Assembly (NCBI GenBank): GCA_019058315.1
Contig: JAHPZH010000003.1
Span: 396,451-460,450, forward strand
From: Candidatus Helarchaeota archaeon
Lineage (GTDB): Archaea > Asgardarchaeota > Lokiarchaeia > Helarchaeales > RDOG01
Length of the DNA stretch: 64,000 nt
Direction of reading: 5' to 3'
Of the stretch, positions 1-6,435 are shown piece by piece (within the stretch, counting starts at the first letter, position 1; each line of letters starts with the position of its first letter). The notes under the pieces were generated by a model. It had not been told where the DNA came from, ran no database searches, and saw nothing but the letters and a program-made list of their open reading frames with translations. Made by a program: the position numbers and the translations under genes.

Positions 1-221
1 GATTCAGTATCTAAAAACCAAATTGAGTGGATTTTGATAATTCTCTCTTGATTTTTATCATTTTTCAAATATTCTGGATAAGTATACAAAGTTAAATGAC
101 CTCTAGCCTCATCGAAGAAACAAAGAAATATTTCATAAAGTGATTTATCCCGACTAATAATCGGAGTTCTTGATTCTATATCATTATTTTCAATTGGAGA
201 TTCTTTTCTATTTTGAAACAA
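1..221 (-). CDS. uDENN/longin-domain protein, partial (runs off the left edge)
   Basis: Not in the ORF track. Hand translation from TTG at 221: MFQNRKESPIENNDIESRTPIISRDKSLYEIFLCFFDEARGHLTLYTYPEYLKNDKNQERIIKIHSIWFLDTE. The IFLCFFDExxG.....YPE pattern matches the uDENN/longin N-terminal hairpin. Frame is open to the window edge. Confidence 0.7.
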   Translation of the reverse strand, partial: MFQNRKESPIENNDIESRTPIISRDKSLYEIFLCFFDEARGHLTLYTYPEYLKNDKNQERIIKIHSIWFLDTE

Positions 222-244
222 ACTAAACCATCTAATAAGTAATA

Positions 245-679
245 TTAAGAAAATTCTACTTTAAAATGGCGAGAATATCTTTTAAATCGTTCTAAAAATT
301 TCTTTCTAACTACTCCAATAATTATATCATCTCTGGTGACAGCGACCCGTTTAACTTTCGATTTATTTATCAGATCCCGGAACTCCTCAATTGAGTAAAT
401 TGGCTCTTCTGCTTTCACCGATATAAATGGTTTATACATCACATCTTTAGCTTTGAGTATTCGAGGATCTTTTTCTCTTGCAACCAAGTCCCAAATAATT
501 CCATCAGTTATTATACCCACAACTTTATCGTTTTTATCTCTAACAAAAACAGAATCCGTCCATTTATCACGCATCAATTTTGCAACCTGGGGTATAAGAT
601 CATCTATTGAACAAAAAACAACAGTCGGGGACATTATATCTTCAAAAGTAGCTGATTTTTCAGAAGTTTTAGAGGACAT
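245..679 (-). CDS. Stand-alone CBS-pair (Bateman) protein
   Basis: DIMSPTVV...VVGIITDG and DVMYKPFISV...IIGVV form two CBS motifs. Confidence 0.85.
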   Translation of the reverse strand: MSSKTSEKSATFEDIMSPTVVFCSIDDLIPQVAKLMRDKWTDSVFVRDKNDKVVGIITDGIIWDLVAREKDPRILKAKDVMYKPFISVKAEEPIYSIEEFRDLINKSKVKRVAVTRDDIIIGVVRKKFLERFKRYSRHFKVEFS

Positions 680-817
680 GTTTCTATTTCCTATTAAAAA
701 TCTATTAAACTTTTTATTAAAACTTTTCTAATTATTATAATTCAGTATTTCATTAAATATTAAATAATTAGATTTTATTGATTTTAAATTTAAGCATATA
801 ACAATTATATCTTGAAA

Positions 818-1237
818 TTAACTTCTCAAACGTATGGCGTTCATTTTACACGCATTAGCATCCGAATATTTACCTATTCTTTCGTAGCATTCTGCCAAAT
901 TTTCCCAGATGGATGGTTTATCAGGTTTTATATTTATTGCTTTTCTGAAATAGGAAATTGCTTCATCGAATTTTCCCTCTTGGACATGAATAACTCCTAA
1001 ATTATTTAAAGCAACAAATTGTTGGGGATTTAACTCAAGAGATTTATTAAAACATTCCACCGCTTTATTAAAATTATCTAAATTAAGATAAGCAGTGCCT
1101 AAATTATTCCATACCTCAGAATTATTTTTTTCCTTTAAAATTTCTTCATAATATTTTATAGATTCCTCAAATTCACAGTTTTCCATTGCTTTTTTAGCTT
1201 TTTCTTCCAAAGTTTCGTTTGAGGATGAGGATTCCAT
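818..1237 (-). CDS. Tetratricopeptide repeat protein
   Basis: VWNNLGTAY...AVECFNKSLELNP, ALNNLG...A..YF.KAI.I.P, IWENLA: 3-4 TPRs. Confidence 0.9.
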   Translation of the reverse strand: MESSSSNETLEEKAKKAMENCEFEESIKYYEEILKEKNNSEVWNNLGTAYLNLDNFNKAVECFNKSLELNPQQFVALNNLGVIHVQEGKFDEAISYFRKAINIKPDKPSIWENLAECYERIGKYSDANACKMNAIRLRS

Positions 1238-1309
1238 ACCACCACATTTTATTTTGCTCTTAAAAAATTTTCCAAATTCAGAAGATTTAATTCATTTTTA
1301 TAAAAGAAA

Positions 1310-2269
1310 TTATAAAATTGCTGATACTTCAGCTTCCAAATTCTTTAAATTTAATATCATTATCCCTAAGCTAAACTTTTTTGCATTAACAACGGAGAAA
1401 AAAGCCACTTGGGGAGTAATATCAGCTAGAATTATACAATCATTATCTTTGGAACGCCAAAACCGAATATCAGTCTCGTCTGATGATAAAAATCCAATTT
1501 TTTTCATATGTGAAAAGACTTCCTCTTTTTCTTTTTCTGCTTCGACAAGAGCTTTTAGACAAACATATTCTAATTCTTCAGAAGTGAGATATTTTGATTT
1601 ACTAGCTGATGCAATTTCTAATCCATCATCTTTATTAATTAAAATACATGCGTCAGTTTTAGTTTTTTTATTGAATTGATCACATAGATTTTGCAACCGC
1701 GTTTGTTTACCCTTTAAAACTTTTTCATTTCTTATAATATTATCCAATATTTGACCTAATGTCTTACGTGCTGTATTTTTAGGAATAGAACTTGAATATA
1801 TTTGAATCTTTGCTTTTTCCCAAATAAGTTCATGCCCTTTTTTCAATTTATTTTCGATTTGCTTTAAAGTTAGCTTTTTTATGTCATTTTTTGTAGCAAT
1901 CACATAAATTAAGCAAGAGGGATTATATCGTGTTACAATTTGAAATGCTCTCCAAAATTCTAGAATAGCCAGTTCAAATTCCAAAGAGTTAGAAGAGTCG
2001 AGTATAAATAAAAATATATCAATTCTAGAAAATATCTTCGATGACCAACTTTCAGTATAATATTCCTCAATAAATTGCTTTTGACCACCTAAATCAAAAC
2101 TGACTATTTCCAAAAGATTTCGATATTTATAATTTCTAGTCTCCAGAAATTCTGTGGGTTTTAAGTTCTCGATTTCTTCCCATTCTTTCCCCAAAAATAC
2201 ATGTTGTATTAATGAAGTCTTCCCAGAATTCTTTAATCCCATAATAACTAATTTCATTTTACATCCCAA
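1310..2269 (-). CDS. Rag/Gtr1-like small GTPase with C-terminal roadblock domain
   Basis: G1 GLKNSGKTS, G2 PT, G3 DLGGQ, G4 TKND, G5 SSI; C-terminal ACILINKDDGLEIAS...LGIMILNLKNLEAEV is roadblock-like. Confidence 0.85.
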   Translation of the reverse strand: MGCKMKLVIMGLKNSGKTSLIQHVFLGKEWEEIENLKPTEFLETRNYKYRNLLEIVSFDLGGQKQFIEEYYTESWSSKIFSRIDIFLFILDSSNSLEFELAILEFWRAFQIVTRYNPSCLIYVIATKNDIKKLTLKQIENKLKKGHELIWEKAKIQIYSSSIPKNTARKTLGQILDNIIRNEKVLKGKQTRLQNLCDQFNKKTKTDACILINKDDGLEIASASKSKYLTSEELEYVCLKALVEAEKEKEEVFSHMKKIGFLSSDETDIRFWRSKDNDCIILADITPQVAFFSVVNAKKFSLGIMILNLKNLEAEVSAIL

Positions 2270-2384: not shown

Positions 2385-3239
2385 TTGACCTATAAATTCG
2401 ACAAATTCCACGGATCCGATGATTATATTGCGGATGAAATGATACAAAGAATAGTCAACGCTGCGATAGCTTTAGAGCGCCCCTTACTTGTTCGGGGAGA
2501 GCCTGGAACTGGAAAGACCTTGTTAGCACACAGTATAGCTGATGCATTAAATAAAAAGCTCATTATTTGGAATATAAAAAGCACTACAAAAGCATCTGAT
2601 GGTCTCTATGTATACGATCAAGTGATGCGGCTTAACGATGCTAGATTTGGTGACCGGGATATTTCTGACATACGTCAATACATTAAATTAGGTAAGCTAG
2701 GAGAAGCCTTCGCCTCTGAAGAGCAAGTCGTATTATTAATTGATGAAATTGATAAAGCAGATATTGAATTCCCTAATGATCTCTTGAATGAATTAGATGA
2801 AATGAGTTTTTATATTAATGAGACAGGTGATGAAATAAAGGCAAAAACTAGACCTATTGTCGTTATCACAAGTAATGCGGAAAAAGAATTACCAGACGCT
2901 TTTTTACGTCGCTGTGTATTTCACTATATTGACTTTCCTGAAAAAAAATTAATGAGAGATATTGTTAAAGTCCACCATCCAAACATACAAGATAAGTTAT
3001 TAGAACAAGTTTTAGATAAATTCTATCACCTAAGGAGTTTGAATTACCTACGTAAAAAACCATCAACCAGTGAACTTATTGATTGGATTGCGATTCTTAT
3101 AAAAGCAGGGATGAGTGAGAAGAAAATTGAAGAAAAAATCCCATTTATCGGATCACTAATTAAGAAAGAACAAGATATGGATGAATATCAGAGAAAGAAA
3201 ACAGTTACTCAACAACCTGGTAGGAGTTATTATTATTAA
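2385..3239 (+). CDS. MoxR/CoxD-family AAA+ ATPase
   Basis: Walker A GEPGTGKT, Walker B LLIDEIDKAD, TSN.EKELPDAFLRRC. Confidence 0.92.
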   Translation: MTYKFDKFHGSDDYIADEMIQRIVNAAIALERPLLVRGEPGTGKTLLAHSIADALNKKLIIWNIKSTTKASDGLYVYDQVMRLNDARFGDRDISDIRQYIKLGKLGEAFASEEQVVLLIDEIDKADIEFPNDLLNELDEMSFYINETGDEIKAKTRPIVVITSNAEKELPDAFLRRCVFHYIDFPEKKLMRDIVKVHHPNIQDKLLEQVLDKFYHLRSLNYLRKKPSTSELIDWIAILIKAGMSEKKIEEKIPFIGSLIKKEQDMDEYQRKKTVTQQPGRSYYY

Positions 3240-4394
3240 ATGTTTCTAGATTTCTTCCTTCTTTTAAGAAAACATAAAGTTCCTGTTACTATTACAGAAT
3301 ATTTAACATTTTTAAAGGCACTTCCCTTGGTGGATTGTGATTTAACCAATTTTTATTATCTAGCGAGGGCTTTCTTAGTTAAAAATGAAGGTTATTTTGA
3401 TATTTATGATCAATGTTTTGCCAATTACTTTAAAGATGTTCCTATGACATTAACCATAGATGAATCTATCCTTGAATGGTTGATGAACCCTAAAAATAGA
3501 AAATATTTAACTGAGGAAGAATTAGCTTTATTAAAATCTCTAGATTTAGAAGAATTAAAAAGATTATTCGAACAAAGGTTAAGGGAACAAAAAGAGCGAC
3601 ATGATGGAGGAGACAAATGGATTGGAACTGGTGGAACATCTCCATTTGGTAGAGAGGGAGTTCATCCTACTGGAATTTCGCTAGGACTTTATCACAACTC
3701 GGGAACAGCAGTTAAATTAGCATTTCAACGTAGATACCAAAATTATCGTCATGATATTGCCTTGAACATTCGCCAGATTCAAATGGCATTAAAAAAATTG
3801 AGACGATTTAAACGTGAAGGACTTGAAGAGGAACTAGACATTGACGAGACAATAGATGAAACTTGCAAGAATTGTGGAGATATAGAATTAATATTCAGAC
3901 CAGAAAGGAAGAATCGTGTGAAGATTTTACTCCTAATGGATGCGGGGGGAAGTATGGACCCTTATGCTAATACTTGCAGTCAACTTTTCTCTGCGGCATA
4001 CAATGTGAAATTTTTTAAAGATTTCAAATATTATTATTTCCACAATTGTGTTTACACTTATTTATATAAAAGTATAGAACAAACTGAAAAATCTAAAATT
4101 GCTACTCAAGATATTATGCGGAAATATGATAAACATTATAAATTGATATTTGTTGGAGATGCTATGATGCATCCAGATGAACTCTTAGCACGCAATGGCA
4201 GCATGTACTATAATGATCCCGATGGAGTTCCAGCAATTTTATGGTTAAAAAGACTAAGAGATCATTTTGAAAAGGCTGTTTGGTTAAATCCTGCTAATTA
4301 TGGAGGTTTTACGAGACAACAAATTGAAAAACTTTTCCCAATGTTTCCACTTACTATTGACGGTTTGGAAGAAGCTATAAGAAAGTTAATCTAA
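3240..4394 (+). CDS. VWA-domain CoxE-like partner of the MoxR ATPase
   Basis: WIGTGGTSPFG, MIDAS DAGGSM, YFHNC, VGDA.M.P, WLNP; starts immediately after the AAA stop codon. Confidence 0.88.
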   Translation: MFLDFFLLLRKHKVPVTITEYLTFLKALPLVDCDLTNFYYLARAFLVKNEGYFDIYDQCFANYFKDVPMTLTIDESILEWLMNPKNRKYLTEEELALLKSLDLEELKRLFEQRLREQKERHDGGDKWIGTGGTSPFGREGVHPTGISLGLYHNSGTAVKLAFQRRYQNYRHDIALNIRQIQMALKKLRRFKREGLEEELDIDETIDETCKNCGDIELIFRPERKNRVKILLLMDAGGSMDPYANTCSQLFSAAYNVKFFKDFKYYYFHNCVYTYLYKSIEQTEKSKIATQDIMRKYDKHYKLIFVGDAMMHPDELLARNGSMYYNDPDGVPAILWLKRLRDHFEKAVWLNPANYGGFTRQQIEKLFPMFPLTIDGLEEAIRKLI

Positions 4395-4687: not shown

Positions 4688-5626
4688 TTACATGATATTC
4701 AAATGTTTTGCTTCACTTTGAGATAATATATCGATTAAGGTATATTCTTTCCATATAGAGGGTCTAAGTCTTGCTAATTCCTTTAATTTATAATCACCCA
4801 GCATTATTTCCCCTAATTTATCTTTAAATTGACTATAGGGAACTTTAACCCTTACGCCTCTTAATTTAGGTACAATGGGGGCAGGTGAAGCAATATCATC
4901 ATATTCAGGCAATTGTCTTTCAATTTCATCTTTAATTGCAAATGGAGATATTAGAAGTGGATCCGCTGCAAGATAACTCCTTCTTTCATCTAAACATAAA
5001 ATTAGTGCTTGTATGATATCGTCTAGCTTATCAATCTGACTTAATAAAGTGAATCTATAGGGTAACCGACCAATTCCAGATATATAATATTTTATTCCAA
5101 GAGAGTCTAATTCTACTTGAGTTAATTTCGGACCTCCTGTTACAACATACGGAATTGATAAGTCAGATATTAATTTTGATTTATAATTAAGTATACAATG
5201 TTTAAAATTTCCTAGAACTATAATAGCTGCATCGTGTTCTTCTATTAATTTAATTTCCTTTGTCGTAATTTGGCAAATTCTCTGTCCTACACCCCTACCT
5301 AACCCAATCATATTATTTTTAGCACCCATTCGTCGAACAAATTCAGCCACATCGCATAAAACATGAGGTAGATGATGTCTAGCTATTGTAGGTGATACAA
5401 CTGCAATCTCTGTGCCGAGCAAAGGTGATTCACGATATGCTGCTTGGAGCTGTAAAATCAAATCTCGAATTAAAGAAGAATCCCTTTCAGGAATAGTAAA
5501 TGTTATAGTGCATTCTTGAGCTAAAATCTTTTTACTAATAGTCCAACCGCCCAAGTCTTCTATTAATTCCATTAATAATTCGTGTTGATATGCGGCTCCT
5601 TCAAAAGTATAGCTTTTTAAATTCAT
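4688..5626 (-). CDS. mmp7: Methanogenesis marker protein 7 (McrC-like MCR activation component)
   Basis: ELIEDLGG, GTEIAVVSPT..RHHLPH..CDVAE, NMIGL.RG.G, IEEHD.A...GNF..CI..K, GRLPYR. Confidence 0.9.
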   Translation of the reverse strand: MNLKSYTFEGAAYQHELLMELIEDLGGWTISKKILAQECTITFTIPERDSSLIRDLILQLQAAYRESPLLGTEIAVVSPTIARHHLPHVLCDVAEFVRRMGAKNNMIGLGRGVGQRICQITTKEIKLIEEHDAAIIVLGNFKHCILNYKSKLISDLSIPYVVTGGPKLTQVELDSLGIKYYISGIGRLPYRFTLLSQIDKLDDIIQALILCLDERRSYLAADPLLISPFAIKDEIERQLPEYDDIASPAPIVPKLRGVRVKVPYSQFKDKLGEIMLGDYKLKELARLRPSIWKEYTLIDILSQSEAKHLNIM

Positions 5627-6435
5627 TTTGTATTTTCCTTTTTCTTTTCCTTCTTCTTCTTTTTTCTTTTCACTTGACCAGAAAGAAATTTAACTGCATC
5701 TACTCTCTGTTTAGTGCTAAATTCTTCGAAATCGTAGGTTTTCCAAGGTGTAAGAATTTTTCTTGTATAACTAGCTCTATCCAACTTTTTATCGAGTGAA
5801 TGTATATATCTTGGGGCTTTTTTTAATGTTTCTAATAATTTAATTGGAATAGGTCGAGGAGGACGTTCTAATATTTTATACACTTTATCTAACCATTCAT
5901 TTTCAATTGGATTTTCTGAAAAAATGAATTTTAATAGCTCAGGAGTAGATAAATTCATTTGAACACGAAATCCTTCCGGAACAATGCGATAAATAAAATC
6001 GGATAATTTATCCATAGTTACTTGTACAGGATCGAAAATTACTGAATTTCTAAGAAGACTTAAATCAATTATTTCGTGGGGAATGACTGATTCCCATCTA
6101 TCAAGTTGATCTACATTTTTTCGTCCTATCTTAGCCCATAAAAATCGGAGTAATTGGGGAGCATATGTTTCATCTCGAATTGTAATATGAATTCCATCTT
6201 CCATCTTTTCAACTTCAGCAATATCATTGATTCTTTTTGGGGCCTCACTACCTTTCCCGAGCTGGATTTGGATGTAAAAAAAAGGAGCTTCATGATCAAT
6301 AATAATTCGAACGTTTTCTATTACAGAAAGCTGAATGTCATTCATATAATACTCAGTAATTACTTGATACGCCATAATTCCATATTCAAAAGGGTCTTTT
6401 TCATCCACCGATTCTACAAAGACTTTAGTAGACAT
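5623..6435 (-). CDS. mmp17: Methanogenesis marker protein 17 with a basic C-terminal extension
   Basis: I.DETYAP.LL..LW...G...V.Q.DR and RIVPEGFRV; lies between mmp15 and mmp7. Confidence 0.82.
   Translation of the reverse strand: MSTKVFVESVDEKDPFEYGIMAYQVITEYYMNDIQLSVIENVRIIIDHEAPFFYIQIQLGKGSEAPKRINDIAEVEKMEDGIHITIRDETYAPQLLRFLWAKIGRKNVDQLDRWESVIPHEIIDLSLLRNSVIFDPVQVTMDKLSDFIYRIVPEGFRVQMNLSTPELLKFIFSENPIENEWLDKVYKILERPPRPIPIKLLETLKKAPRYIHSLDKKLDRASYTRKILTPWKTYDFEEFSTKQRVDAVKFLSGQVKRKKKKKEKKKENTK

Follow-up and report, generated by a model that had tools for sequence, protein, structure and literature searches.

The stretch of DNA considered here, referred to as the window, comprises 64,000 nucleotides (G000:C11:396451-460450) from the 5.8-Mb genome of a Candidatus Helarchaeota archaeon with about 30% GC (labels in G, C, L and f stand for our genomes, contigs, loci and families). 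At its start lie four co-oriented minus-strand genes, which a preliminary description had read as a possible nutrient- and energy-sensing module composed of a Rag-like GTPase, a TPR protein, a stand-alone CBS pair and an unannotated open reading frame (ORF) of the uDENN/longin kind. The list of ORFs bears out this arrangement exactly, with gaps of 72, 138 and 23 bp, and Pfam agrees with the identities proposed for the GTPase (GTP1 hereafter), the TPR protein and the CBS pair (Table 1). Genes that run in one direction with short gaps between them are nothing unusual in an archaeon. What rises above chance is conserved synteny, a shared private domain and phyletic co-occurrence; this evidence covers the CBS and longin genes and, at the level of the order, the TPR gene, and does not extend to GTP1. 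The window takes in the 5′ end of a multi-gene module that is kept in several Asgard lineages. The further genes of the module lie beyond the window start, among them a Rag-type GTPase, GTP2. They are numbered below on locus L001, the 10 kb upstream of the window, where a window coordinate equals the L001 coordinate minus 10000.

The 73-residue fragment of the fourth gene that falls inside the window, which holds YEIFLCFFDEARGHLTLYTYPE, has no Pfam match. Recovered in full, the gene encodes a 631-aa protein consisting of a longin domain, a helical stretch, a small beta-sandwich and four CBS domains, the latter occupying the C-terminal 280 residues (Pfam 4.7e-43, 145.7 bits), while residues 1-350 match no Pfam family. 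In an AlphaFold2 model built on 39 homologues (predicted local distance difference test, pLDDT, 84.5), a beta-beta-alpha-beta-beta-beta-alpha longin unit spans residues 30-142 and is followed by helices at 149-221, a disordered linker and a seven-stranded immunoglobulin-like (Ig-like) beta-sandwich at 250-337. Database searches place residues 1-350 in an Asgard-restricted family of about 80 clusters at 50% identity. This family exists in a stand-alone form of about 348 aa, with the source names Lokiarchaeota, Sigynarchaeota, Thorarchaeota and Helarchaeota, and in a CBS-fused form of about 630 aa with mostly Helarchaeota as source; the nearest relatives of our protein are 78-88% identical. Its CBS motifs, GIITNRD, GIITERD and GIISNTD by direct reading, are of the G-h-h-(T/S)-x-x-D type, typical of ribose-binding CBS sites.

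In an exhaustive VIA structural comparison, the top matches of residues 28-192 were NPRL2 (8fw5_B, Z 10.4, 129 aligned), a Lokiarchaeal longin (8yqg_B, Z 10.4), FLCN (6nzd_H, Z 10.3) and yeast Npr2 of the SEA complex (Z 9.6). The assignment of the modelled domain to the longin fold is secure, and kinship specifically to longins of the GTPase-activating protein (GAP) type is favoured but not decided. The uDENN/longin label of the preliminary description therefore survives in its second half, with the longin fold matching NPRL2 and FLCN, and fails in its first: a DENN protein is ruled out because nothing past the longin domain resembles cDENN or dDENN, only helices and the beta-sandwich being there, and no DENN Pfam model matches. 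Likewise, the comparison with NPRL2 and FLCN proposed there gave structural matches and no sequence-profile relation for the 39 members, in either Pfam or the PDB. An Atlas fold search returned only the Asgard clusters of the family itself. The Folliculin model matches two other ORFs of this genome and not the longin-CBS ORF; the NPR2 model has no match in G000 but none in any control genome either, so it is uninformative. Within the family runs a near-invariant motif, F-L-x-Y-F-D-E-x-R-G-H-x-P-L-x-x-Y-P, with G41, in the beta1-beta2 loop, present in 38 of the 39 members and P49 in 37. According to a 2025 study (PMC12290439), a GP motif before beta2, in this same beta1-beta2 loop, is specific to FLCN, NPRL2, SMCR8, C9orf72 and some Asgard longins.

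The GTPase that belongs to the module is GTP2, whose orthologues are 46-90% identical across Asgard families and which matches Gtr1_RagA with 65.9 bits (cut-off 22). Its motifs GxxGCGKT, DFGGQ, HKYD (G4) and TSIY (G5) are invariant, the last two having been followed in 13 orthologues, and HKxD is the Rag-type form of G4. An AlphaFold2 model predicts a G domain and, at residues 176-302, a C-terminal domain of the roadblock type (alpha-beta-beta-alpha-beta-beta-beta-alpha). Full-length Foldseek searches lead to LokiRagO (1.8e-16), RagA and Gtr1 in alignments of about 300 columns; in profile comparison LokiRagO scores 2.4e-29, and RagA (9e-20; RagA/Gtr1 about 1e-19) is ahead of RagC (3e-12; RagC/Gtr2 about 1e-11). 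The best structural and sequence matches are LokiRagO (8yl2) and LokiRagM (8zla, 9m28), which have the G domain and the roadblock in common with GTP2, although identity to them is only 23-25% and LokiRagO is described as a homotetramer. A complex prediction for longin residues 25-350 with GTP2 gave an interaction score (ipSAE) of 0.01, which counts neither for nor against binding.

Three proteins of the cluster share a domain. The FrhB-like member, an FeS flavoprotein of the FrhB/FdhB family, contains ferredoxin, FrhB_FdhB_N (1.8e-22) and FrhB_FdhB_C (4.9e-42) domains by Pfam and scores 1e-72 against the NCBIfam model FrhB PRK09325 (244.6 bits, just below the cut-off of 269), and it carries an extra C-terminal domain besides. 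A hidden Markov model (HMM) of the beta-sandwich, made from residues 246-342 of the longin protein and searched against all ORFs of G000, found the longin protein (3e-29), the FrhB-like protein (residues 394-483, 2e-21) and the arrestin-like protein (residues 298-386, 4e-9), the next match standing at 7e-4. In this genome the domain is confined to these three proteins, all encoded within 6 kb. The same privacy is seen elsewhere: G038, G006 and G147 have the domain in no genes other than the cognate ones for longin, FrhB and the arrestin-like protein, G259 has it only in two tandem longin paralogues and FrhB, and G210 in the longin gene alone. Since it is confined to three neighbouring proteins, this domain is strong evidence that they act together. 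The sandwich dominated the Foldseek search of the PDB, which brought RhoGDI, GH2 Ig-like, C2 and PDE-delta matches only at E 3e-4 or weaker; we treat these as a generic Ig-like fold and do not take them to indicate a lipid-binding function as in guanine nucleotide dissociation inhibitors (GDI).

Thirteen loci with the module were compared; two metagenome contigs are represented among them, and the GTDB families number at least eight. The longin gene stands within about 12 kb of the FrhB and GTP2 genes in f1, f2, f3, f4, f11, f21, f22, f25 and the two metagenome contigs; f4 and f21 apart, it is joined by a CBS gene, either as a neighbour or in fusion, and, f25 apart, by the arrestin-like gene (Arr). 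In L032, L035, L037, L038, L052, L053 and L055 the gene immediately preceding longin is an orthologue of the CBS pair. The order in G000 is GTP1, TPR, CBS, the fused longin-beta-CBS4 gene, FrhB-beta, GTP2 and Arr-beta, and a close relative with module proteins 78-90% identical (L052) has this order without GTP1. In G297 we find TPR, CBS, longin-beta, CBS4, FrhB, GTP2 and Arr, so that longin and CBS4, one gene in G000, are two adjacent genes there, through either fusion or split. At L053 a thioredoxin-like gene precedes CBS, fused longin-CBS4, FrhB, GTP2 and Arr, and at L055 the run FrhB, CBS and fused longin-CBS4 is convergent with GTP2 and Arr. G038 and G076 have CBS, longin, a C25 peptidase, FrhB, GTP2 and Arr, the peptidase being an intruder between longin and FrhB, and in G006 the two halves of the module are 6.6 kb apart. 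The f25 genomes show longin′, longin, CBS and FrhB convergent with GTP2, without an arrestin-like gene; G025 has longin and HdrA and, further on, FrhB, convergent with GTP2 and Arr; in G147 (f4), Arr, GTP2 and FrhB are divergent to hdrA, frhB1, frhB, hdrA2 and longin. As regards the synteny expected by the preliminary description, the CBS pair and the longin gene are kept across families and the TPR gene within the order, whereas GTP1 is not kept. The intervening peptidases of f22 and f11 are large secreted proteins of the gingipain family (Peptidase_C25, 673-871 aa, 2e-64).

Co-occurrence tells the same of GTP2. Among 301 Asgard genomes, with orthologues of GTP2 accepted at E<=1e-50, the longin family is present in 103 and GTP2 in 90: 88 genomes have both, 15 the longin only, 2 GTP2 only and 196 neither. 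Families f2, f3, f4, f11, f21, f22 and f25 carry both genes, and both went unfound in f8 (0/28), f10 (0/76), f15 (0/19) and others. The proposed link between a Rag GTPase, a longin and CBS domains consequently stands for GTP2, by synteny and by joint presence in 88 of the 301 genomes, and falls for the GTPase of the window.

Table 1. Position of the genes of the module and of other features mentioned in the text
Feature	Coordinates	Strand	Size and remarks
GTP1, Rag/Gtr1-like small GTPase	window 1310-2269	-	319 aa (315 aa from the ATG at 2257); Pfam Gtr1_RagA 6.9e-23
Small TPR protein, about three TPR repeats	window 818-1237	-	139 aa; Pfam TPR_1 1.8e-29
CBS pair (Bateman module)	window 245-679	-	144 aa; Pfam CBS 6e-14, two stretches, 52.6 bits
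Start of the longin-CBS gene, first 73 codons	window 1-221 (ORF 3-221, open at the edge)	-	holds YEIFLCFFDEARGHLTLYTYPE
Complete longin-CBS gene	L001:8326-10221 = G000:C11:394776-396671	-	631 aa; recovered ORF
FrhB-like protein with beta-sandwich	L001:6578-8059	-	493 aa; beyond the window start
GTP2, Rag-type GTPase	L001:5599-6510 = G000:C11:392049-392960	-	303 aa; 3.5 kb outside the window
Arrestin-like protein with beta-sandwich	L001:4411-5571	-	386 aa; beyond the window start
hdrA, mvhD and frhB1 (second frhB)			downstream of the arrestin-like gene, beyond the window start
hdrA, as two same-frame ORFs	L001:2081-3754 (G000:C11:388531-390204)	-	split by a single in-frame stop
Tandem longin-beta-sandwich paralogues of f25	L039:9811-11906; L040:9839-12033; L050:8445-10557		about 312 and 344 aa
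Peptidase_C25 genes	L035:8059-10080; L038:6930-9545; L037:2639-5188		between longin and FrhB
Second Rag-longin neighbourhood (L060)	G000:C3:345000-357000		two Rag-like GTPases, 306 and 310 aa
Further Folliculin match	G000:C1:34600-34791		above cut-off
MoxR-type AAA ATPase and CoxE-like VWA protein	window 2385-4394		divergent from GTP1
McrC and DUF2113, adjoining	window 4688-6435	-	MCR_C 2.2e-94; DUF2113 3.7e-42

The best explanation, and one that we hold to be probable, is that of a conserved module of a Rag-type GTPase, a longin, CBS domains, an FrhB-like protein and an arrestin-like protein that acts as a regulatory switch. Its core would be formed by the CBS pair, the longin-beta protein (fused in this order to two Bateman modules), FrhB-beta, GTP2 and arrestin-beta. 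GTP2 would be the nucleotide switch, and the longin protein its regulator or platform, GAP-like or resembling a guanine nucleotide exchange factor (GEF), by analogy with FLCN-FNIP and GATOR1. The CBS modules may supply an adenosyl-ligand (energy) signal, the FrhB-like protein may supply or receive a redox signal (F420/ferredoxin), the shared beta-sandwich would dock its three carriers onto a common partner, and the arrestin-like protein could serve as adaptor or effector. The output or the input of the module would concern electron-bifurcating redox metabolism, hdrA-mvhD-frhB being a frequent neighbour. Such a switch might respond to energy charge and affect the GTP cycle, as the preliminary description supposed of its own set; CBS domains also bind S-adenosylmethionine (SAM), NAD and metal ions, and energy charge is therefore only one option. 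The resemblance to the input layer of TORC1 drawn in the same place is an analogy and not a demonstrated homology of pathway.

Several points weigh against the switch, or against its parentage with eukaryotic GAP longins. In the structural comparison, longins that are not GAPs come within about 1 Z unit of the top matches (BLOC-3 9.4, Sec22 9.3, VAMP7 9.2, DENND1A 9.1), as do FNIP2 and Lst4. None of the 39 members matches the Folliculin (PF11704), NPR2 (PF06218) or uDENN/DENN Pfam models at E<=1, and the profile of the longin-helical-beta-sandwich family finds no sequence relative in the PDB. The residue after G41 is His in 29 of the 39 members and Pro in one, which turns the GP motif into GH. 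As for arginine fingers, which we take to be R164 in FLCN and R78 in NPRL2, R88 in the beta3-beta4 turn is a candidate by sequence only (Arg in 19/39, Lys in 9/39), R40 being a second candidate (Arg 19/39, Lys 6/39). The arrestin assignment comes from an Arrestin_C match below threshold (1e-3, 19.8 bits, cut-off 27.7) and from language-model leads, the Atlas feature scores to arrestin and Vps26 clusters being 0.84-0.86. Eukaryotic Rags are heterodimers of two paralogues, of the A/B type with the C/D type; here one Rag-like gene alone is conserved in the module, GTP1 and GTP2 being together in G000 only. Linkage in an operon is not universal, since other f4 genomes keep longin and GTP2, the latter in a triad with FrhB and Arr, on the same contig at 10-62 kb from each other, and related genomes are not independent, for which reason the co-occurrence counts should be read as about seven families against about twenty. 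Finally, whereas gene content, folds, synteny, privacy of the domain, co-occurrence and the fusion or fission of longin and CBS are observations, we infer all the physical interactions and activities of the members.

The redox surroundings of the module admit a different reading. Homologues of HdrA (NCBIfam HdrA2, 1e-159 to 3e-265) and a second FrhB occur within 10 kb of the module in seven of the 13 loci, belonging to five families (G000, L052, L032, L038, L057, L056/L041 and L047; in genome labels G000, L052, G297, G076, G006, G147 and G025). Taken with the FrhB-like member, this recurrent neighbourhood suggests a link between the module and an electron-bifurcating, F420/ferredoxin-linked metabolism. 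It could also be taken as the sign of an accessory or assembly set of an HdrA-MvhD-FrhB electron-bifurcating complex, in which FrhB-beta, which retains its ferredoxin, FrhB_N and FrhB_C domains and its likeness to the NCBIfam FrhB, would be an alternative electron-input subunit, and the GTPase, the longin and the arrestin-like protein would work in assembly, targeting or scaffolding through the beta-sandwich. However, L035, L039/40/50, L053 and L055 have no HdrA near the module, the fusion to CBS domains points to ligand sensing, and the known role of Rag-type GTPases and longins is that of regulatory switches and not of metallo-enzyme maturases, so that we regard an accessory set as unlikely. 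The hdrA gene of G000 is itself divided by its in-frame stop, and an identical split is seen in L052, L032, L056 and L057; the stop is compatible with selenocysteine read-through.

The original grouping, which makes one functional unit of GTP1, the TPR protein, the CBS pair and the longin protein, with GTP1 as the energy-charge-responsive Rag switch, is quite doubtful. It draws on the tight co-oriented arrangement of the four genes and on the character of GTP1, which is Rag/Gtr1-like both by Pfam (81.7 bits, cut-off 22) and by PDB sequence search (best solved relatives RagA and Gtr1, about 5e-9). A paralogue of GTP1 elsewhere in G000, moreover, precedes a TPR gene, with a weak Folliculin-Pfam longin at the same locus. 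The roadblock domain of GTP1 is assumed from length and from alignment to GTP2. However, the G4 (TKND) and G5 (SSIP) of GTP1 are unlike the Rag-type HKxD and TSI(W/Y), and its identity to GTP2 is 23%. In a set of 5.8 billion proteins, leaving aside the record of GTP1 itself and a partial fragment 99% identical to it, the best homologues are 36-43% identical, and within the same order 37-42%, as against 78-90% for module proteins in close relatives; the latter homologues are no closer to it than its paralogues on contig C3 (41% and 37%). At L052 no GTP1 is found in the 526 bp that precede the TPR gene, though the module proteins are so similar, and the gene is likewise absent beside the module in G297, G240, L053, L055 and every other genome locus examined, while the two homologues examined are both in unrelated neighbourhoods. 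With such distant homologues and no counterpart beside the module in relatives, GTP1 is therefore a lineage-specific addition, a recent and divergent paralogue next to the module and not a conserved member of it; the GTPase that co-occurs with the longin family is GTP2. Adjacency of a GTPase carries in itself little weight, because G000 has many Rag/Arf-like GTPases (54 Gtr1_RagA matches at E<=1e-3, about 25 of them strong).

In L052 (69% identity) and in L032/G297 an orthologue of the TPR gene precedes the CBS gene, and none of the other families sampled showed it next to the module; it is an order-level addition. We discarded the idea that GTP1 and the TPR gene duplicate a GTPase-TPR pair of contig C3, the TPR genes not being specifically related and the TPR gene occurring without GTP1 in relatives. 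That contig carries a second Rag-longin neighbourhood (L060), with the two closest paralogues of GTP1, one of these Rag-like GTPases being followed by a 455-aa TPR protein. Two kb away is a 311-aa ORF with a weak Folliculin match (E 0.002, below cut-off), and a further Folliculin match, on contig C1, is above cut-off.

That the adjacency is just a gene order inherited in one Asgard clade, without joint function, is very unlikely: a nearby GTPase is unsurprising among so many, and operons that unite GTPases with longin or roadblock genes are generally lacking in MK-D1 (Tran et al. 2024, PMC10933270), but a domain present in only three proteins within 6 kb is hard to explain in this way, the set survives rearrangements, strand inversions, an inserted C25 peptidase gene and the fusion or fission of genes, and co-occurrence at the family level is near-perfect.

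If the module is a regulatory switch, the closest eukaryotic systems are GATOR1 (NPRL2-NPRL3; SEACIT in yeast), which acts on RagA/Gtr1, and FLCN-FNIP (Lst7-Lst4), which acts on RagC/Gtr2. Like the eukaryotic Rag/Gtr proteins, GTP2 has a G domain with HKxD, TSIY and DxGGQ and a predicted C-terminal roadblock domain, and like the longins of GATOR1 and FLCN its putative partner begins with a longin that best matches NPRL2 and FLCN and keeps a Gly at the GP-motif loop. The two tandem longin paralogues of f25 recall the heterodimeric pairs FLCN-FNIP and NPRL2-NPRL3. The family differs from FLCN and NPRL2 in lacking Folliculin or NPR2 Pfam membership, in having GH instead of GP and in having only candidates for the arginine finger, and from NPRL2 and DENN proteins in having helices and a private beta-sandwich after the longin in place of a DENN or NPRL2 C-terminal domain. 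Unlike GATOR1 and FLCN, the module has CBS, FrhB and arrestin-like partners and a single conserved Rag-like paralogue. Its tandem CBS pairs resemble AMPK gamma and other Bateman adenylate sensors, although there is no kinase partner as in AMPK.

Longins of this kind are not new to Asgard archaea. Liu et al. (2020/2021, 10.1101/2020.10.19.343400) report abundant NPRL2-like longins, some fused to signalling domains, as well as FLCN-like proteins, and state that Asgard archaea are without a TOR kinase domain; in a later article (Traffic 2025, PMC12290439) GP-motif Asgard longins have been proposed as possible GAPs for Rag or Arf proteins. Both works see in such longins regulators of Asgard Rag or Arf GTPases, as a proposal. 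Our family agrees with these NPRL2/FLCN/SMCR8-type longins in its GAP-longin-like fold and in the fusion to prokaryotic signalling or sensor domains that is frequent among them; the Asgard FLCN-type longins so described keep GP and Arg, whereas the longin-beta family has GH. The operon presented in these works (10.1101/2020.10.19.343400; PMC12290439) pairs a DENN protein with a Rab-like GTPase and not with a Rag-like one, and the accessible text of both does not describe the longin-beta family, the CBS fusion, the beta-sandwich or the linkage with FrhB, Rag and arrestin-like genes. No description of the module, the CBS fusion or the shared domain was found in the papers searched. What is new for the window is the exclusion of GTP1, the order-level standing of the TPR gene, the recurrent hdrA neighbourhood and the GH variant of the GP motif.

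The value of such a module lies in the pairing of partners. Asgard genomes encode dozens of small GTPases and of longin and roadblock proteins, and which regulator goes with which GTPase is mostly unassigned because their genes seldom share an operon (Tran et al. 2024, PMC10933270). Here one cognate set can be named, a Rag-type GTPase, an FLCN/NPRL2-like longin, CBS sensors, a redox flavoprotein and an arrestin-like protein, tied by synteny, gene fusion, a private shared domain and co-occurrence. With a few recombinant proteins the set would allow a test of the role of a Rag-longin switch before TOR and lysosomes, and the protein to express is GTP2, not the GTPase of the window. A bolder version of the switch, which we find rather improbable, would see in it a pre-eukaryotic Rag-longin device, direct mechanistic ancestor or sister of the GATOR1/FLCN-Rag axis, that reads energy through adenosyl ligands on CBS and redox through the F420/ferredoxin flavoprotein FrhB beside HdrA, and not amino acids; a single Rag-type GTPase would be the base on which its private "ear" domain gathers sensors together with an arrestin-like effector.

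Two further gene pairs lie in the window, next to these genes. A MoxR-type AAA ATPase and a CoxE-like VWA protein are divergent from GTP1, and six f4 loci (L034, L036, L041, L042, L043 and L049) have an orthologue of MoxR at 7-9 kb from their longin gene, which suggests an old synteny block. Beyond them, McrC and DUF2113 adjoin each other on the minus strand, a pair that in an Asgard genome would fit an alkyl/methyl-CoM reductase system.

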